Below are positions 1 to 6,578 of a DNA stretch of 6,578 nt, piece by piece. The DNA is taken from positions 1 through 6,578 of IMG/VR virus record IMGVR_UViG_3300022493_000042, one strand, 5' to 3'. Below the pieces are notes generated by a model. The model was not told the origin of the DNA. It saw only the letters and a program-made list of their open reading frames with translations, and ran no database searches. The DNA is from a virus. The first letter of the stretch is position 1; every line of letters begins with the position of its first letter. Position numbers and translations under genes: made by a program.

Positions 1-127
1 ATTACGCCCGATGTCTACATATATCAGTTGCGGGCTATTTACTCTCGCATACACTCTCGCAAACTTGGTCGGTTTTACGACTGGTGCAACGATCACCCCG
101 ATAATTTGCCTCAGGCTATTAATGTAG
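1..127. repeat. Terminal redundancy: 127 nt identical to 6452..6578. The window wraps around a circular genome of about 6451 nt.
   Basis: Direct comparison of the first 127 and last 127 bases shows they are identical. The repeat stops exactly at the window edges. Confidence 0.95.
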
Positions 128-384
128 ACCCTTTCGCTCTTACAGATGTGCACCTCGGTGTACTGTGTAGCTCCGCTCTCTCGTCTTATTTCGGATACGA
201 TTTAGATGAGTGTCCTGATAATGACGACTTGCGTCGTCGCTCGTTTGATGAATCTGGATATCTGACCCACGTAGGCAGATATTCAAAGCTTTCGGATGAC
301 CGTGTGAAGCGTAAAAAGTTAAATGACTATCGCAAAGGTCTTAATGTGATGAAAATTTTTGTTTCACCTCATAATAATAATTAA
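1..384 (+). CDS. VP4: C-terminal 127 codons of the replication initiator Rep (VP4-like). It continues the ORF that begins at 5189 and runs off the window end. Stop TAA at 382-384.
   Basis: The frame is continuous with 5189..6578 through the 127-nt overlap; the codon at 6452 equals the codon at 1. The first stop in that frame is at 382-384. The ORF track starts this piece at an internal TTG only because the true start lies across the circular junction. Confidence 0.8.
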   Translation: MTPDVYIYQLRAIYSRIHSRKLGRFYDWCNDHPDNLPQAINVDPFALTDVHLGVLCSSALSSYFGYDLDECPDNDDLRRRSFDESGYLTHVGRYSKLSDDRVKRKKLNDYRKGLNVMKIFVSPHNNN

Positions 385-386
385 CT

Positions 387-2366
387 ATGGCTCAAAAGCT
401 TTTTGGCGTCAATAAGCCAAACACTAATCTGAGGAAGAATGTGTTTGACCTATCCGCCACTAACAAATTTACGCTCAGTGCCGGGATGCTCGTCCCTTGT
501 CTTGTGCGTGAATTGAACCCCGGTGAAAAGGTAGAGTTATCTCTTGCCTCAATCACTCGTGCACAACCGCTCAATACTGCTGCGTTCGTCAGAATGAATC
601 AGTATTATCACGCCTTCTTCGTGCCCTATAAGCAATTGTGGTCTCCCTGGGATAATTTTATAAACGGCGTGGATTATCGTCAGTCCACTCGTGCTCTCAA
701 GGCTGGAGAAAGTATTCCCGCTTTTACCTTTAAGGAGCTTTATACCCAGCTCTTTAAGGCTGGTATTCTTGCGGGTAAGGATGCTCGTGAAGGTGAGTTT
801 TCGTCTAAAAACGCCCTTGACGCTCTCGGCTACTCTTATGTCTACGGCATTTCTCGTCTTTTGGATATGCTCGGTTATGGGTTTGAAATTACCATCAAGC
901 CCAGCGACTATATCACTAATTGGGAGAAAGCAGATGATGATGATGTGTTTGTTGAAGGTCGTGGCGGTCACGTTGGTGAGTACCATTTTGACCATAGAGG
1001 CAAAGTGCCTACTAAGCAAAAAACGCCCCCTCCTGCTTCTGATATCCGAGTGCGTATTGCTTCGTTTGCAGATTTCTGCAAGTTCGTGTTTAACAATGCT
1101 AAGGTGTTCCTTGGTGTCAATAATACGGCTTATGCGTCATCTGCCCCAGCTGTGCAGGCTAAGCTTACTCAGCTTATTTACGATTGCTTCGGAGATTTCC
1201 GCTTTAACCCTTTCCGACTTCTTGCCTATCAAAAAATCTACTATGATTTTTATCGTAGACAGGACTACGAAGGTTCAAAGCCCGAACACTATAATATAGA
1301 CGATTTCAACGGTGACCTTATGAGTATGACCGACACTCAGCGTCTCCTTGGTATCTTCCAGCTTCGCTACAGATGGCTTGCAAAAGACTACTTTACAGGC
1401 GTTGTCCCCTCGGAGCTCTTCGGTACAGAAAATCTTGTAGCTAAGAATAATGTTAATAGCTTGCTCCCCGAGTTCCGCCAGGCTATGACTAATTCGTTTA
1501 ATGGTGCAGATAGTGCTACTATCTCGTCTATGCTCTCAGATGGTCGTGGTGTAAAGCTCGGTCATAATGCAGAGATTTCTACTCGCTCTATTCGTGCTAT
1601 CTACGCTATTGAGAAGCTTATGCGTCTCACTCGTAGAGCTGGTGACTACGATTATATCTCACAGACCTCCGCTCATTATGGTGTTGATGTCCCTAAAGGT
1701 CGTGGTGAAGAGGTGTCATTTTTAGGCGGTTGGTCGTCTCAGATTGATATCTCCGAGGTTGTCACTACTGCCCTCACCGAAAAGGGAGACCCCGCCCAAA
1801 TCTATGGTAGAGGCGTAGGCACTCAACAGGGAAAGGATATCAATTATGAGGCTAAGGAACACGGTCTTTTGATGGTCATTACGTCTATCGTCCCCGATAG
1901 CGATTACTCTGGCGTTGGTATGAATAACTTTAACGCTAAATTGTATCGTGGTGACTTCTTCCATCCTGAATTTCAGGATTTAGGACTGCAACCTATTATG
2001 TCTCACGAGTTGGCTTTTCAACCTCATAAGCTCAATCGTTCTGCTACGGATAAGTTCGGCGGTTCTGTCCTCCTCGGTTACGCTCCTCGTTATGCAGAGT
2101 ATAAGACTGCTTGTGATGAGTTGCACGGTGAGTTTAGAGCTGGTAAGGAGTTCTCCCCCTGGGTATCGTCTATCAAGGTGTTGGATAATGCTTTCTTCAC
2201 CTCATCAGGTATCAAGCCCTCGGCTCTCCTGGTGTCTCCCTCTCAGTTGGATAGTATCTTCTCAGTCCGTTTTGACGGTACGGAGAGTACCGACCAATTT
2301 ATGTGCGTGTGTAATAATATTTGTAAAATCATCCGCCCAATGTCAGTGACAGGGCAAAATCTCTAA
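387..2366 (+). CDS. VP1: Major capsid protein VP1 (F-like), 659 aa
   Basis: The N-terminus MAQKLFGVNKPNTNLRKNVFDLSATNKFTLSAGMLVPCLV has the R-N-x-FDLS...K-T...G-x-L-P signature of Microviridae major capsid proteins. It is 659 aa long, starts 2 nt after the Rep stop, and is the longest ORF in the window. Confidence 0.9.
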   Translation: MAQKLFGVNKPNTNLRKNVFDLSATNKFTLSAGMLVPCLVRELNPGEKVELSLASITRAQPLNTAAFVRMNQYYHAFFVPYKQLWSPWDNFINGVDYRQSTRALKAGESIPAFTFKELYTQLFKAGILAGKDAREGEFSSKNALDALGYSYVYGISRLLDMLGYGFEITIKPSDYITNWEKADDDDVFVEGRGGHVGEYHFDHRGKVPTKQKTPPPASDIRVRIASFADFCKFVFNNAKVFLGVNNTAYASSAPAVQAKLTQLIYDCFGDFRFNPFRLLAYQKIYYDFYRRQDYEGSKPEHYNIDDFNGDLMSMTDTQRLLGIFQLRYRWLAKDYFTGVVPSELFGTENLVAKNNVNSLLPEFRQAMTNSFNGADSATISSMLSDGRGVKLGHNAEISTRSIRAIYAIEKLMRLTRRAGDYDYISQTSAHYGVDVPKGRGEEVSFLGGWSSQIDISEVVTTALTEKGDPAQIYGRGVGTQQGKDINYEAKEHGLLMVITSIVPDSDYSGVGMNNFNAKLYRGDFFHPEFQDLGLQPIMSHELAFQPHKLNRSATDKFGGSVLLGYAPRYAEYKTACDELHGEFRAGKEFSPWVSSIKVLDNAFFTSSGIKPSALLVSPSQLDSIFSVRFDGTESTDQFMCVCNNICKIIRPMSVTGQNL

Positions 2367-2369
2367 GCT

Positions 2370-2822
2370 ATGCCTAACAGAAGCTATCTCAAGCGAACTC
2401 AGCCCTATATTGATGTAGAGGTGCAGGTTTCAGGTAATGATGCCCACGATATGGCTATAGGTGTCTACGATCCTGAATATGTCGCTATGCTTTACCCTAC
2501 GGACGCTCGTAGCGGTTTCCCGACTTCTGACCTTGCACGTGTGCTCTCTTCTGAGGTATCACAGGCTGATAAGGAGCGTATCCTTAATCGTCTTCAGAGA
2601 GAGGATGGACAGTTCTTGCCCTCCGACCTCACCGATGAGGATGTGTTTACTCTTGTACCTCCCCGCTTCGTGCTTGGCGACCAGGTCAATATCCAGCGCT
2701 GGCGTGACTATCTCGCTTCCGATGTCTTGCCATTTATGCGAGACGAGGTTAAGGCTATGGATGTAGTCCCCGATGTCAATTCTCCTTCTAACTCTAACGA
2801 TAATAACAATGGCACAGAATGA
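2370..2822 (+). CDS. 150-aa acidic protein, possibly an internal scaffolding protein (VP3-like). Function not established.
   Basis: The ATG lies 3 nt after the VP1 stop and the T-ending codon usage matches neighbouring genes. It is D/E-rich with an Asn/Ser-rich tail. Size and position between VP1 and VP2 match gokushovirus VP3, but no diagnostic motif was recognised. Confidence 0.5.
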   Translation: MPNRSYLKRTQPYIDVEVQVSGNDAHDMAIGVYDPEYVAMLYPTDARSGFPTSDLARVLSSEVSQADKERILNRLQREDGQFLPSDLTDEDVFTLVPPRFVLGDQVNIQRWRDYLASDVLPFMRDEVKAMDVVPDVNSPSNSNDNNNGTE

Positions 2823-2991
2823 AAACAAGCACTCTAAGTTGCTTTCTATCCTGATTTTCGTAGTACAGTTGCTTCCTACGATTATTCGGTTTCTTGGCAG
2901 TCTTGGTAAGGGATCTCCCGACCCTGTGGACGTACCTACGCCCGATACTCCTACGGATATTACTGATACTCATTTTCCTGACCCTCATTAA
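2809..2991 (+). CDS. Small membrane protein, 60 aa from ATG 2809 (72 aa from ATG 2773). Holin-like candidate.
   Basis: MAQNENKHSK precedes a 22-residue hydrophobic helix (LLSILIFVVQLLPTIIRFLGSL), followed by an acidic Pro/Asp/Thr-rich tail. There are two in-frame Met codons (2773 and 2809). The upstream one adds a short hydrophobic segment (SILLLTLTIIT) and overlaps the end of the preceding ORF. It ends 12 nt before VP2. Confidence 0.4.
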   Translation: MAQNENKHSKLLSILIFVVQLLPTIIRFLGSLGKGSPDPVDVPTPDTPTDITDTHFPDPH

Positions 2992-3002
2992 GTGTAGTCA
3001 AT

Positions 3003-4124
3003 ATGGCACTCCTTGAAACAGGAATAACTGCGGGCACCTCCTTAATTGGAGGTGTCCTCGGCTATTTTGGACAAAAATCTGCGAATGCAGAAGCTCTCAA
3101 GCGAATGCGAGAGCAAAACGATTTCGCTGAGCGAATGTGGAATAAAGGTAACGAATATAACACTCCTTACGAGCAACGTAAGAGGTACGAACTCGCTGGT
3201 ATTAATCCGTATCTCGCTCTTGGAAATATTCAGGCTGGTAATGCTCAAGGGAGCGTTACCCCCGCTCCTCCTGCTCCTGTTGGAAACGCTGGTGCGTTTC
3301 TTGGTTCAGGTGCAAATCAGGCTGTAAATGCTTACTTGCAGAATCAGCTTATATCCTCTCAGGTTGAGAAAAATCTTGCCGATGCCGACGCTGTGCGTAC
3401 TGATACTCCCTTTATCGGTCGTCGCAATGAGGCGGATATCGCCTCTACGGAAGCAAGCACGGAGAATACTCGTGCTAAAACTGATTTGGATAGAGCGAAT
3501 ACGCTTGTTGCTACGGCTAATCTTGACCGTCTTAAACAGATGACCCCTGTAGAAGTACAGTTAATGCAGGCTAACGTGGAAAATGTTACTGCTAATACGT
3601 CTCTTACCAAGTTGCAGGAGAAGATACAAGATTGGGAGTTCCGCTATATTAAGCCCCTGGAGGCTCAGGAGATTAAAGCACGTATCTCTCAAGCCTATGC
3701 GACTATTGGTTATCTTGTGGCTCAGCAACGTTTATCCGTTGCTCAGGCTGGTTTGGTTGCTAAAATGACGCTTACGGAAATTCAGCGAGAAAAAGGTGTC
3801 CGCTTGGATAATATGCTTAAGCAAGACGACTTCTCTCGCCGTGATGTAGACTTTTGGACTGAAATGGAGAATAAGCGTGCACAGACTAAGTACCTTAACT
3901 CTCAGTCCGATAAGACTGATGACGATAATGAACGTGCTTGGATGGGTTTCGTTATGGATTTATTTAGTACAGGTGCTTCTATGGCTATGCCTGCTCCTTT
4001 TGGTGTTGGTCCTGGTGCAGCTGGTTTTACTGGAGGTATCCCTAAAACAGGTACATTCCGTACTCCTCCGCCTGCTCCTCGTCCTACTCCTCCTCGTCCT
4101 CGAGGTATGCCTAATCGTAGATAG
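3003..4124 (+). CDS. VP2: Minor capsid / DNA pilot protein VP2 (H-like), 373 aa
   Basis: The motif NEYNTPYEQRKRYELAGINPYLALGN matches the conserved VP2 signature of gokushovirus-like phages. A long Ala/Gln/Thr-rich predicted coiled-coil lies in the middle, and a Gly- and Pro-rich basic C-terminus (PPPAPRPTPPRPRGMPNRR) follows. Confidence 0.85.
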   Translation: MALLETGITAGTSLIGGVLGYFGQKSANAEALKRMREQNDFAERMWNKGNEYNTPYEQRKRYELAGINPYLALGNIQAGNAQGSVTPAPPAPVGNAGAFLGSGANQAVNAYLQNQLISSQVEKNLADADAVRTDTPFIGRRNEADIASTEASTENTRAKTDLDRANTLVATANLDRLKQMTPVEVQLMQANVENVTANTSLTKLQEKIQDWEFRYIKPLEAQEIKARISQAYATIGYLVAQQRLSVAQAGLVAKMTLTEIQREKGVRLDNMLKQDDFSRRDVDFWTEMENKRAQTKYLNSQSDKTDDDNERAWMGFVMDLFSTGASMAMPAPFGVGPGAAGFTGGIPKTGTFRTPPPAPRPTPPRPRGMPNRR

Positions 4125-4125
4125 T

Positions 4126-4251
4126 ATGCTTCTGTATATCGTCTCCTCGGTGCTCTTTGTAGCTCTCGTCTTCGGTATCTCGTGTGCCTGGTGTAGTGCG
4201 CTCTCTAACTGCTATGCCAAGAGTGCAGACCCCCCTAAACCGACTGCATAG
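4126..4251 (+). CDS. 41-aa single-transmembrane peptide (MLLYIVSSVLFVALVFGISCAWCSALSNCYAKSADPPKPTA). Possible membrane or lysis accessory protein.
   Basis: The ATG lies 1 nt after the VP2 stop (TAGtATG), i.e. translationally coupled. About 25 consecutive hydrophobic residues are followed by a short polar tail. The stop is immediately followed by a hairpin. Translated by hand from the sequence; it is the real tail of the otherwise spurious track ORF 3877..4251. Confidence 0.35.
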   Translation: MLLYIVSSVLFVALVFGISCAWCSALSNCYAKSADPPKPTA

Positions 4252-4253
4252 CC

Positions 4254-4269
4254 CGTAACTCACGTTACG
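4254..4269 (+). terminator. Short hairpin CGTAAC-tcac-GTTACG (6-bp stem, 4-nt loop) 3 nt after the last structural-gene stop. Possible transcript end or processing structure.
   Basis: A perfect 6-bp inverted repeat is seen directly. No U-tract follows it, so it is not a canonical intrinsic terminator. Confidence 0.2.
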
Positions 4270-4350
4270 TTCGGAGCGTACTGCCCCGACTATCATCCAT
4301 CTAACTGCTCGTACCTGTCGTTTGACCCCCTAAAGTCACTGCGGTATAAA

Positions 4351-4415
4351 AGAGGTATAGGCGTATGACAATAAGCGACCAAAGGGAAGCGCCATTGCCA
4401 TACGAATATACCTCT
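4351..4415. repeat. Long imperfect inverted repeat: AGAGGTATAGGCGTATG (4351-4367) pairs with CATACGAATATACCTCT (4399-4415), 15/17 bp, around a ~31-nt loop. GGTATA / TATACC direct repeats sit within each arm.
   Basis: Seen directly. Arm 1 contains GGTATA twice (4344-4349 and 4354-4359). Arm 2 contains TATACC twice (4407-4412 and 4415-4420). It lies in the only sizeable non-coding region of the genome. Confidence 0.55.
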
Positions 4416-4514
4416 ATACCTTTGCGGTGCTTTAGTGGACAAATGCCAGGTACACGCTATTAGATGATAGTCGTGCAGTAGCTTCGGAGTTGCCCCTGAT
4501 GTTTCCCATTTCTC

Positions 4515-4550
4515 GGCGCAATAACGTAGTGCGCCCTACAAGCTTGATAT
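4515..4550 (+). promoter_or_regulatory. GC hairpin GGCGC-aataacgtagt-GCGCC (4515-4535) followed by CTTGATAT (4543-4550), which resembles the phiX174 gene A nick-site core CAACTTG^ATATT. Candidate Rep recognition or nick site.
   Basis: A perfect 5-bp GC stem, and an 8-nt identity to the phiX174 origin core. An 8-mer match in 6.5 kb is not by itself significant. Confidence 0.25.
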
Positions 4551-4612
4551 CTCTAAGGAAACATCATAACAGTCTAACCTACCCCCCTCGGAAATAGCCA
4601 CTTATAAAAACG

Positions 4613-4645
4613 TTTGGCGTTTCCGAGAAAAAGTATATATCTTTG
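4613..4645 (+). promoter_or_regulatory. Bacteroidetes-type promoter candidate: TTTG (-33-like, 4613-4616), 21-nt spacer, TAtcTTTG (-7 consensus TAnnTTTG, 4638-4645), just upstream of the lysozyme ATG at 4650.
   Basis: Motif spacing matches the sigma-A(Bfr) promoter architecture. No gene in the genome has a Shine-Dalgarno sequence upstream of its start. A second TAccTTTG lies at 4417-4424. Confidence 0.3.
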
Positions 4646-4649
4646 CGCT

Positions 4650-5186
4650 ATGGAATTGCTCGCTACCTATATAGACCAGCTGAAAGCCTTTGAGGGCTTT
4701 CGTTCTATGGCTTACCTCCCAAAAGGTGAGCCTGCGTCTGAGTATCTAACCATTGGTTATGGTACACGCCTGCCAAGGACAAAAGCTCTTGCGCTGTCTC
4801 CTATGGATGAGCAAGATGCGTCCTACTATCTTAATCAGTCTCTTTCTGAGATTACAAAATTTGTCCGTAGTTCTTTGCAGGCTATACCTTATACGCTCTC
4901 AGACGCTCAGTTTACTGCCCTGGTAGACTTTTGTTATAACTGTGGCACAGGCAACTATAAGCGTTCCACTCTGTATAAGATACTCAAGACTGTACGCTTT
5001 ACTGATGAAGATTTGAGACTTCATCCTCGTGATGAGTATGTTTCGGCAAAGGTTGAGGCTATTTGCTCAGAGTTTATGCGGTGGAACAAGAGCGGAGGCA
5101 AAGTCCTCCCAGGTCTTGTGACCCGCTGTAATTGGCGTGCCTACTGCTGGCGTTCTCGTGCTGTTGATTCACTCTATGCTAAATAG
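4650..5186 (+). CDS. Phage lysozyme, GH24 family (P22 gp19 / T4 e-like endolysin), about 178 aa from ATG 4650
   Basis: IDQLKAFEGFRSMAYL...EYLTIGYGT carries the catalytic Glu and the TIGYG motif. LSDAQFTALVDFCYNCGTGNYKRSTLYKIL and FMRWNKSGGKVLPGLVTRC match the conserved C-terminal blocks of P22/lambda-family lysozymes (F.RWNKAGGKVL.GL.RRR). There is no N-terminal signal or SAR segment. The TTG at 4614 given by the track is an unlikely start; the ATG at 4650 aligns with the family N-terminus. Confidence 0.88.
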   Translation: MELLATYIDQLKAFEGFRSMAYLPKGEPASEYLTIGYGTRLPRTKALALSPMDEQDASYYLNQSLSEITKFVRSSLQAIPYTLSDAQFTALVDFCYNCGTGNYKRSTLYKILKTVRFTDEDLRLHPRDEYVSAKVEAICSEFMRWNKSGGKVLPGLVTRCNWRAYCWRSRAVDSLYAK

Positions 5187-5188
5187 AT

Positions 5189-6578
5189 ATGTCTGAGTTC
5201 TCTTTATACGGTTGTTTTGCTCCGAGGAAGGTGTTTAACAAATACCTCGGTCGTGAAATTGTCGCTAATTGCGGAAAGTGTGCATATTGTCGCTCGCTCC
5301 GCTCTTTTGACCTTACCAGCCGTGTACAAAGAGAATTTGTAAATCAGGGTGCAAATACTGCACTCTTTATAACTTTGACTTATGACAACGACCACCTCCC
5401 TGTTTATCAGTACAACGGGCGTTCCCGCAAATGGCATTCAAACTGTGGTTATCCCGACTTCGGTGATATCCCCGAACAGTACGTGTCCGATTATCCCGCT
5501 CCCGTAGGTTATGATATTGATGCTAAAATGCCACTGCGTGCGCTCGGCACTCGCTCGGCTTCACGCTTTAAGATGCGCCCTGCGTTCGCTCATCTTTGCT
5601 ACCCCGATGTGCAAAAGTACATTAGCCTGTTGCGTGCTAAGTTTTTTGCTATCTGCGCTCGCTACGATGATAGCCCTTTACATATCGCTTACGAGAATAC
5701 TGATTTGACCTATGAGACATTTTCCCTGCGTTACGCTGTGTGCGGAGAATACGGACCCTCTTCGTTCCGCCCGCATTATCACGTTATTATTTGGCTCAAC
5801 CACCAGGCAAACGATAGACAACTTTCAGCACTCTCGCAAATCTTTTCTAAGAGTTGGACGCTTGGTAATATCGATGTGCAGACCGTTACCTCGGATGGTG
5901 TTTCAGGATATTTGGCTGACTACGTTACAGGCGTTAATGGCATTCCGCCTATACTACAAGGTAGAAGAGTACGTCCCTGCTTTCATTTCTCGCAAAGCCC
6001 TACTATCGGTATGCTCCGCTTGGGTGAAGATGAGGTACAGAAAATACTCTTTACAGGAGATGCTATCAGACGTAGATTTGATGACAGACGACAGTCTGTT
6101 ATTGTTGAGGAGCTTCCCCTTGCGACTCTCAATAAGTACTTCCCAAAGTGTAAAGGATATAGCACAGATGATTTTGCGCGCCTCCGTTATGTGTATGGAT
6201 ACGCTTACCGTTACTTTCAGGAGCGAGGACTTACCCACCGCCCCGATGAGGTAGATGCTCTTCGTCTTGTAGATGTCCCCTTTCCTGTGCGGTTGATGTC
6301 TGCTGATGCGTCAAGATATTACCGTGTTGCTCCTCGTCTCCTCGGCTCGTCTTTCAATTTCCCCGACAATGTTCGTGCTGGTCTTTGGACGTGGTGCCGT
6401 GCAGATAGGTACGCTTCGCTACAGTGTTATAGGATGTGTGTTAAGTATGGTATTACGCCCGATGTCTACATATATCAGTTGCGGGCTATTTACTCTCGCA
6501 TACACTCTCGCAAACTTGGTCGGTTTTACGACTGGTGCAACGATCACCCCGATAATTTGCCTCAGGCTATTAATGTAG
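5189..6578 (+). CDS. VP4: Replication initiation protein Rep (VP4 / gene A-like, HUH rolling-circle endonuclease), N-terminal 463 codons. The ORF runs through the window end and continues at 1..384, about 548 aa in total.
   Basis: Translated by hand: MSEFSLYGCFAPRKVFNKYLGREIVANCGKCAYCRSL...ALFITLTYDNDHLP (motif I-like), RPHYHVIIW (HUH motif, 5774-5782), and GYLADYVTG (two Tyr spaced i, i+4 as in phiX174 A Y343/Y347, 5909-5923). It is the first ATG after an in-frame stop at 5180-5182 and starts 2 nt after the lysozyme stop. The track omits it because no stop is reached inside the window. Confidence 0.88.
   Translation, partial: MSEFSLYGCFAPRKVFNKYLGREIVANCGKCAYCRSLRSFDLTSRVQREFVNQGANTALFITLTYDNDHLPVYQYNGRSRKWHSNCGYPDFGDIPEQYVSDYPAPVGYDIDAKMPLRALGTRSASRFKMRPAFAHLCYPDVQKYISLLRAKFFAICARYDDSPLHIAYENTDLTYETFSLRYAVCGEYGPSSFRPHYHVIIWLNHQANDRQLSALSQIFSKSWTLGNIDVQTVTSDGVSGYLADYVTGVNGIPPILQGRRVRPCFHFSQSPTIGMLRLGEDEVQKILFTGDAIRRRFDDRRQSVIVEELPLATLNKYFPKCKGYSTDDFARLRYVYGYAYRYFQERGLTHRPDEVDALRLVDVPFPVRLMSADASRYYRVAPRLLGSSFNFPDNVRAGLWTWCRADRYASLQCYRMCVKYGITPDVYIYQLRAIYSRIHSRKLGRFYDWCNDHPDNLPQAINV
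6452..6578. repeat. Second copy of the 127-nt terminal redundancy (equals 1..127). Marks the circular junction.
   Basis: Exact identity to 1..127. Confidence 0.95.

Follow-up and report, generated by a model that had tools for sequence, protein, structure and literature searches.

A probable membrane-peptide micro-gene behind the pilot protein gene of human oral and airway microviruses, and its possible role in lysis

ORF41 and its product

The viral DNA of IMG/VR record IMGVR_UViG_3300022493_000042 (positions 1 to 6,578; hereafter the window, meaning the whole stretch of 6,578 nt that was analyzed) contains a 41-codon open reading frame (ORF), designated ORF41, immediately behind the gene for the DNA pilot protein VP2. 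Comparative analysis indicates that ORF41 is, with high probability, a genuine protein-coding micro-gene, and it is restricted to one narrow clade of microviruses from the human mouth and airways. Its tentatively favored function is that of a holin-like inner-membrane partner of the signal-less GH24 lysozyme encoded in the same genome. The VP2 stop codon is TAG at 4122-4124, base 4125 is T, and the ORF41 start is ATG at 4126-4128, coordinates that bear out the TAGtATG junction described in an earlier sequence-only reading of this DNA; the frame closes with TAG at 4249-4251. The same reading had described the product as one hydrophobic helix followed by a cysteine-containing polar tail, and this description holds for the peptide MLLYIVSSVLFVALVFGISCAWCSALSNCYAKSADPPKPTA. 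Its best 19-residue Kyte-Doolittle mean is 2.46 (residues 2-20), and an AlphaFold2 model built with a 3-sequence alignment comprises a single helix at residues 2-33 and a disordered tail (mean predicted local distance difference test score 78, ~90 in the helix).

Alignment of 14 ORF41 sequences revealed W22, C23, L26, N28, C29, Y30, S33, and P36 to be invariant, most of them within a juxtamembrane motif that follows the helix (Table 1). In the helix itself, S19 is invariant and position 17 is always occupied by a small residue (G/A/S). The N-terminus is uncharged and positive charges are found in the tail, with K32 and K38 present in 13 of the 14 sequences and R24 in five. The presence of at least one transmembrane domain (TMD) in a small phage protein, a criterion used for holins, was found for ORF41 by 19-residue hydropathy, by the AlphaFold2 helix, and across the 14 sequences.

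Conservation and selection on the ORF41 frame

Relatives were drawn from GenBank phages, IMG/VR, JGI/ENA metagenomes, and Logan/ENA contigs reached via VP2 homologues, and individual genomes are referred to by L numbers. Thirteen distinct genomes, with a VP2 43-98% identical to that of the window, keep an intact ORF41 homologue at the same place. The start codon is an ATG 1-6 nt past the VP2 stop in 11 of the 13; L028 has two candidate starts, a GTG 4 nt downstream of the VP2 stop and an ATG 17 nt upstream of it, and L027 begins with an ATG 56 nt upstream. The start and the open frame, whose conservation the sequence-only reading had proposed to look for, are therefore present in every relative, with the start position shifted in these two. 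Furthermore, the ORF41 frame is the only one of the six that is free of stops in 13/13 genomes, the other five being interrupted in 6 to 13 genomes.

The pooled ratio of nonsynonymous to synonymous differences per site (pN/pS) is 0.39 in the ORF41 frame compared to 1.34-1.45 in the two remaining frames of the sense strand and 0.65-1.56 in those of the antisense strand, and the dN/dS check on alignments that had been suggested earlier returned pairwise values of 0.14-0.57. When substitutions were re-placed at random, as few amino acid changes as observed were obtained with P ≤ 0.0004 for the window and L002 and in 0 of 20000 trials for L004 and L005, the main statistical caveat being that these selection tests are pairwise and not tree-aware, so that comparisons share branches.

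The helix half of the gene evolves as protein-coding sequence normally does. All 20 third positions of codons 2-21 are variable, and pS in this half (0.24-0.81) is similar to that of the VP2 core (0.45-0.73) with a lower pN (pN 0.264 and pS 0.615 for codons 2-22). Codon position 2 is T in 55-70% of the helix codons in every genome, and the mean hydropathy is held at 2.0-2.5 despite changes in 42-54% of the bases and 10-14 of the 19 residues, compared to 1.05-1.5 expected from simulations (P = 0.003-0.08 per pair). Judging from these substitution patterns, the helix half is under protein-level selection. The proposal that annotation has overlooked a genuine small gene here, encoding a membrane peptide with a single pass and positioned behind VP2 for coupled translation, is thus supported by the conserved frame, by purifying selection specific to that frame, and by the hydrophobicity that is kept.

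An explanation by the codon repeats of the VP2 C-terminus had also been raised in the sequence-only reading, and it fails. The last ~50 codons of VP2 (~3960-4121) are hypervariable in sequence and length among close genomes, cannot be aligned, and have pN ~ pS; this stretch is thus essentially unconstrained, and conservation begins at ORF41. The nucleotide identity to OR148992 is 58-64% at the VP2 3' end and returns to 86% from position 4160, which suggests that the VP2 3' end may be a hot spot of recombination or diversification with the VP2 stop as its downstream boundary. The hydrophobic extension upstream of ORF41 inside VP2 is not conserved and is therefore a composition artifact, whereas the ORF beyond the stop is conserved. 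A longer overlapping gene starting at the in-frame ATG 3919 or GTG 3877 was rejected on the same grounds, as its upstream open stretch is not conserved, and stops occur just before the ORF41 start in L003, L033, L002, L005, L028, and L032. An antisense ORF at 4111-4296 was likewise rejected, being interrupted by stops in relatives and lying on the strand with the antisense pN/pS values given above.

Annotation status and distribution

ORF41 had been expected to escape standard gene callers on account of its size, which holds only in part. It is missing from three GenBank annotations and was left uncalled on six Logan/ENA contigs, and the gene calls of the window's own contig include the 60-aa ORF60 and lack ORF41; however, homologues were called as DAF24920.1, DAX60889.1, and P0084, and as a 43-aa gene in L034. 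The names given to DAF24920.1 and DAX60889.1 in metagenome-assembled genome third-party annotations (“Mature oligodendrocyte transmembrane protein” and “GRB2-binding adapter (GAPT)”) are taken as spurious transfers. A further protein, P0002, had no contig placement.

No Pfam family matched ORF41 at E ≤ 10 and PHROGs returned only generic transmembrane matches (E ~0.02). A word-indexed search of 5.8 billion proteins recovered the two called homologues DAF24920.1 and DAX60889.1, and an exhaustive HMMER search of 1.84 billion protein representatives found only ORF41's own family, in two clusters that include the 46-aa L028-type form. Scans of IMG/VR yielded two clade members only. Given the lack of a family match and its absence in relatives at 30-37% VP2 identity, ORF41 is an orphan of one genus-level clade.

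A possible holin-like partner of the GH24 lysozyme

The holin-like function is favored because of genomic context, comprising a lysozyme without an export signal, the co-occurrence of the two genes, the lower specificity of the second small membrane ORF of the genome (ORF60), and analogues in other microviruses; it is put forward as a plausible, still uncertain reading. The N-terminus of the GH24 lysozyme (MELLATYIDQLKAFEGF) is not hydrophobic, the maximum 17-residue Kyte-Doolittle value being ~1.0 in its homologues, and the enzyme has neither a signal nor a signal-arrest-release (SAR) segment, so it would depend on a membrane lesion for access to the cell wall. Of the 13 genomes with ORF41, 12 also encode the lysozyme, and no holin is annotated in the ORF41-bearing genomes. 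The papers searched report endolysins for microviruses and mention no holin (PMC3394797; PMC11499846; PMC9512667; PMC9753089). ORF60 (ATGGCACAGAATGA) combines a hydrophobic helix (LLSILIFVVQLLPTIIRFLGSL) with a tail that is acidic and rich in Pro, and it is annotated only as hypothetical. Its family, with the consensus ILxFVVQxxPxxIxxLG, occupies the VP3-VP2 interval in far more distant relatives as well, among them lysin-less genomes and a prophage (L030), which makes ORF60 less likely to be lysin-specific.

As a holin-like partner, ORF41 would be the last cistron of a genome-length + strand message. One such message is predicted because the gene junctions across the window are tight (the extremes being a 14-nt overlap and an 11-nt gap), all of them lack a Shine-Dalgarno sequence, and the sole promoter motif lies before the lysozyme. 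TTTG and TAnnTTTG constitute the Bacteroides-type promoter consensus, and the pattern TTTG-N17-23-TAnnTTTG has one match in the window compared to 0.15 expected, with at least one match in 28 of 200 shuffles. The motif hints at a Bacteroidota host and at a single promoter for the whole + strand, which carries every gene of the window. Ribosomes that had just terminated on VP2 would translate ORF41 via the TAGtATG junction, and the peptide would enter the inner membrane of the host, the uncharged N-terminus facing outward and the K/R-bearing tail, including the invariant motif, lying at the cytoplasmic face. This N-out/C-in topology is predicted from the uncharged N-terminus, the K/R tail, and the positive-inside rule. 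The small-residue face of the helix (G/A/S17, S19, A/V21) would permit packing against other helices. Accumulating late and in proportion to structural-protein synthesis, the peptide would permeabilize or depolarize the inner membrane; the lysozyme would thereby gain access to the peptidoglycan, and the timing of lysis would be set by ORF41.

Several observations weigh against this function. ORF41 shows no similarity to any holin or other family in the Pfam, PHROGs, and HMMER searches, and at 39-50 aa its family is smaller than any validated holin known to us. Its topology and translational coupling are features that we infer, and the amino acid conservation of the tail is partly confounded by nucleotide-level constraint. 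In addition, L003 (PV594042.1, a “partial genome” record) keeps ORF41 despite a precise deletion of the lysozyme ORF: comparison of L003 560-640 with L033 and with positions 4600-5200 of the window showed the promoter-like stretch ...CTTTGTGGTAT joined directly to the VP4 ATG. As far as this record goes, L003, which also keeps ORF60, is a natural lysozyme-null variant. Conversely, L035 (VP2 35% identical) has a GH24 lysozyme and no ORF41, and a classic GC-rich stem with a T-run (GGGGGCAAATCGCCCCCTTTTT) follows VP2 in its stead (L035 3369-3776). ORF41 also lies in the VP2-to-VP4 interval without being adjacent to the lysozyme, from which it is separated by 398 nt of conserved non-coding DNA and the promoter-like motif. 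A host search of 185,579 representative genomes found no match to the ORF41 DNA motif and no VP1 relative or prophage. Finally, a predicted TMD is a poor predictor of lysis, as 178 of 293 TMD-bearing candidates were inert (PMC7693330).

Comparison with known lysis proteins

ORF41 resembles small single-TMD phage lysis peptides and is a member of no described family. The single-TMD holins of tailed phages include T7 gp17.5 (~67 aa) and T4 T (class III), with which ORF41 shares its small size, one TMD, a charged hydrophilic end, and a phage that has a soluble, signal-less muramidase. It differs from them in the shorter products of its family (39-50 aa), in the lack of any sequence relationship, in its position away from the endolysin gene, and in its imperfect linkage to the lysozyme; hole formation by ORF41 is putative. 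Among single-gene lysis proteins, phiX174 E has 91 aa and blocks MraY, and LysM of levivirus M has 37 aa and blocks MurJ. ORF41 is, like these, a tiny, single-TMD orphan of a minimal phage (ssDNA or ssRNA) with a narrow distribution that is easily missed and possibly recent or de novo in origin. Unlike them, it is free-standing, without homology, and without a conserved helix proline, its phage has a lysozyme, and its lytic action is putative. The E gene is embedded in the scaffolding gene and its N-terminal TMD contains an essential conserved proline.

Two further comparisons come from other microviruses. Ebor, which infects Rhodobacter, is the sole microvirus whose lysin has been verified by experiment, and its 45-aa Gp1, a “membrane protein” by TMHMM, was not detected in virions (PMC11980548). 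Gp1 is comparable to ORF41 in being a ~45-aa predicted single-transmembrane protein of a microvirus that has a peptidoglycan hydrolase, yet Ebor belongs to the subfamily “Tainavirinae” with a host of another phylum, and the likeness, taken from the published description, is an analogy only. The human microviruses PV067928 (L025) and PV067915 (L026), which carry an M15 peptidase, have unannotated 40-42-aa single-transmembrane ORFs after VP2 (L025 3747-3869 and L026 3788-3916) that are 50% identical over their first 20 residues, compared to only 31% identity between the VP2s, as well as a second small transmembrane ORF just before Rep (L025 4654-4830 and L026 4758-4856). ORF41 occupies the same slot between VP2 and lysin and has the same size and one TMD. 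In contrast to ORF41, which starts 1 nt past the VP2 stop, these ORFs start 33-60 nt past it; they are also unrelated to it in sequence, and their charged N-terminus (MxEKxKLxKxLR) implies an orientation opposite to that of ORF41.

Memberships in other lysis classes were rejected, including the spanin- or lipoprotein-like and pinholin-like identities that the sequence-only reading had considered. An o-spanin or lipoprotein would not fit, as no K or R precedes the helix (there is no basic n-region) and Cys20 (“GISC”) gives way to L or Y in four genomes (L003, L033, L028, and L027). Cys23, which is invariant, has a W before it, a residue that is not known to be allowed at position -1 of a lipobox. 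An i-spanin was rejected because the tail behind the helix is just ~19 residues long, basic, and modeled as disordered, in place of a long periplasmic coiled coil. A pinholin of the pinholin/SAR-endolysin system requires two TMDs compared to the one in ORF41, and the lysozyme lacks the hydrophobic N-terminus. A phiX174 E-type amurin was rejected on the lack of homology and of a conserved helix proline and on the free-standing position of ORF41 after VP2.

Alternative functions of the peptide

A real membrane peptide with a non-lytic role, such as superinfection exclusion, a tether for VP2, assembly, or replication complexes, or a modulator of a host membrane protein, is unlikely, yet it deserves serious consideration. 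An anchor for DNA injection and a virion micro-protein, both named in the sequence-only reading, are further putative identities. The coding evidence is the same as for the lysis reading, a location immediately behind the pilot gene, with coupled translation, would suit a function related to VP2, the imperfect lysozyme linkage seen in L003 and L035 fits a lysozyme-independent one, and the invariant juxtamembrane motif suggests a specific partner. However, there is no family match to any such function, microvirus virions are without a membrane, and the narrow clade does not agree with a universal function of VP2, since relatives at 30-35% VP2 identity do without ORF41.

Alternatively, ORF41 might be a single-gene-lysis (Sgl) peptide or “protein antibiotic” of the phiX174 E or LysM type, whose helix binds and blocks an enzyme of the host lipid II pathway with the lysozyme only as an accelerator. 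Small size, one TMD, orphan status, and a genus-level distribution are typical of newly and rapidly evolved Sgl genes (PMC7693330). The loss of the lysozyme by precise deletion in L003, with ORF41 kept, agrees with this explanation, and the tail may stem from a duplicated non-coding arm in a de novo-like manner. The predicted N-out/C-in orientation also matches the topology of E. An Sgl peptide is nevertheless distinctly improbable: the lysozyme present in 12/13 genomes would be redundant beside a working Sgl, no helix proline equivalent to E Pro21 is conserved, the helix drifts and the tail is fixed in ORF41 whereas the reverse holds for E, and L003 is a single “partial genome” record. The holin-like function remains the tentatively preferred one for the peptide.

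The ORF41 tail and the downstream hairpins

Synonymous change is suppressed in ORF41 codons 22-38 (pS mostly 0.1-0.25, and 0-0.46 over codons 22-33, compared to 0.45-0.73 in VP2), so that the tail motif owes part of its conservation to the DNA or RNA level. Neither this constraint nor the imperfect co-occurrence with the lysozyme figures in the sequence-only reading. The DNA downstream of the ORF41 stop is conserved even more than ORF41. The tail holds copy 1 of a direct repeat whose copy 2 forms the left arm of a giant hairpin (Table 1). The two copies are diverged and spaced by 95-96 nt, both are kept in 11/11 genomes examined, and L032 displays parallel changes in both copies and in the right arm (ACC to ATT, GGT to AAT). 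The repeat may reflect gene conversion, a shared binding site, or the tail arising by duplication.

The giant hairpin has z = -8.9 as DNA and -9.75 as RNA compared to shuffles, with compensatory changes at 20 of 63 consensus pairs across 11 genomes and near invariance among close relatives; candidate identities are a complementary-strand origin, a packaging signal, and a structured RNA. No Rfam family matched anywhere in the window. The sequence-only reading had placed the end of the frame right before a hairpin: a 6-bp stem does lie 3 nt past the stop, but mismatches accumulate in relatives with no compensatory changes, so this structure is not conserved, and the conserved hairpin lies 20 nt off. 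A scan of 3900-4750 for intrinsic terminators and sigma-70 promoters found none, nor any terminator-like T-run. Further downstream, CTTGATAT at 4543-4550 lies in an invariant intergenic stretch in the window, L001, L004, and L005, is intergenic also in L034 and L035, and is identical to the phiX174 Rep nick-site core. L002, L003, L027-L029, and L031-L033 lack it in the corresponding region, and, being confined to the former genomes, it is not a clade-wide feature.

These features bear on the explanation that ORF41 encodes no functional protein and that its open frame is a by-product of an adjoining cis-acting DNA or RNA element, such as a replication, packaging, or termination signal. The more strongly conserved non-coding DNA past ORF41, the suppressed synonymous change in the tail, the duplication of the hairpin left arm by the tail in every genome examined together with the parallel L032 changes, and the fact that most gene callers leave ORF41 uncalled all agree with it. 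It is very improbable, however, as the 5' half keeps its hydrophobicity, its T-at-position-2 periodicity, and its open frame although synonymous sites there change as fast as the background, the start codon lies at or near the VP2 stop in 13/13 genomes beside a hypervariable VP2 end, and pN/pS in the tail is still 0.41. A regulatory leader ORF, in which translation to 4251 and not the peptide would control the folding of the downstream hairpins and hence termination or lysozyme/Rep expression, could draw on a stop that precedes the small hairpin by 3 nt and the giant hairpin by 20 nt and on a tail that repeats the left arm and might in principle compete for the right arm, but it is hardly credible, since a switch with the tail pairing the right arm was not supported by duplex energies (duplexes no better than shuffles, z +0.8 to -3.1 and mostly ~-1; -21 to -39 kcal/mol compared to -67 to -95 when the real arms pair), a terminator-like T-run is lacking, and selection on amino acid hydrophobicity is unexpected for a pure leader.

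Genome context, relatives, and host

The source genome is a complete circular Microviridae genome with a unique length of 6451 nt, the window having an exact 127-nt terminal redundancy (1-127 = 6452-6578) that derives from assembly of a circular genome. Its closest GenBank record is Microvirus D_HF4_124 from human saliva (90.8% nucleotide identity), followed by two nasopharyngeal Microviridae at ~77% nucleotide identity. The features of the window are listed in Table 1.

Table 1. Coordinates of genes, predicted elements, and repeats in the window.
Feature	Position	Strand	Remarks
VP1 major capsid protein	387-2366	+	Pfam Phage_F
VP3-like gene	2370-2822	+	
ORF60, 60-aa hydrophobic ORF	2809-2991	+	overlaps end of VP3-like gene
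VP2 / DNA pilot protein	3003-4124	+	PHROG pilot-protein matches E = 3e-16; “DNA pilot protein” in OR148992
ORF41, probable single-pass membrane peptide gene	4126-4251	+	homologues in 13 distinct genomes; pN/pS 0.39
Predicted transmembrane helix, ORF41 codons 2-22	4129-4191	+	hydrophobicity kept, sequence varies
Juxtamembrane motif W-C-x-x-L-x-N-C-Y-[TA]-K-S, ORF41 codons 22-33	4189-4224	+	alignment of 14 sequences
Direct-repeat copy 1 (TCTAACTGCT ... CCCCCTAAAnnnACTGC), within ORF41 tail	4204-4247	+	families D5, D1
Small 6-bp hairpin CGTAAC-TCAC-GTTACG	4254-4269	+	3 nt past ORF41 stop
Giant imperfect hairpin, ~220 nt, non-coding	4271-4489	+	inverted repeats I1, I2, I6
Direct-repeat copy 2 (CCCCCTAAA..ACTGC), left arm of giant hairpin	4300-4342	+	
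Non-coding DNA, 398 nt	between ORF41 and lysozyme		
Bacteroides-type promoter match TTTG-N21-TAnnTTTG	4613-4645	+	ends 4 nt before lysozyme ATG
GH24 phage lysozyme	4650-5186	+	Pfam PF00959 E = 1.2e-24; PHROG endolysin E = 1.8e-28
Rep/VP4	from 5189 across circular junction	+	

A Bacteroidota host is suggested by the promoter motif, the lack of Shine-Dalgarno sequences, and published work on related prophages (PMC3394797). The lysozyme homologues are all viral and come from ~6.5-kb microvirus contigs. The prophage mentioned above (L030 4523-11268) is a distant relative with a VP2 30% identical, integrated in a 453-kb metagenomic contig and flanked by an aspartyl-tRNA synthetase gene and an aminotransferase gene.

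Significance

ORF41 illustrates that real micro-genes are dropped from microvirus annotation or kept under nonsense names, and that apparent amino acid conservation beside a replication-type hairpin can be partly at the nucleotide level. It is a doubtful but possible further claim that ORF41 is a lysis membrane effector, holin or stand-alone, outside the phiX174 group and the first there, with a C-terminal half that arose from a duplicated hairpin arm; if true, the same stretch of DNA would be a cis-element repeat and coding sequence at once. None of the papers searched explains how endolysins, which many microviruses outside the phiX174 group carry, cross the inner membrane. ORF41 provides a concrete, clonable lysis candidate in a lysozyme-bearing lineage, with natural controls in L003 without the lysozyme and L035 without ORF41, and it brings the question of how lysin-bearing microviruses lyse their hosts within reach of experiment.

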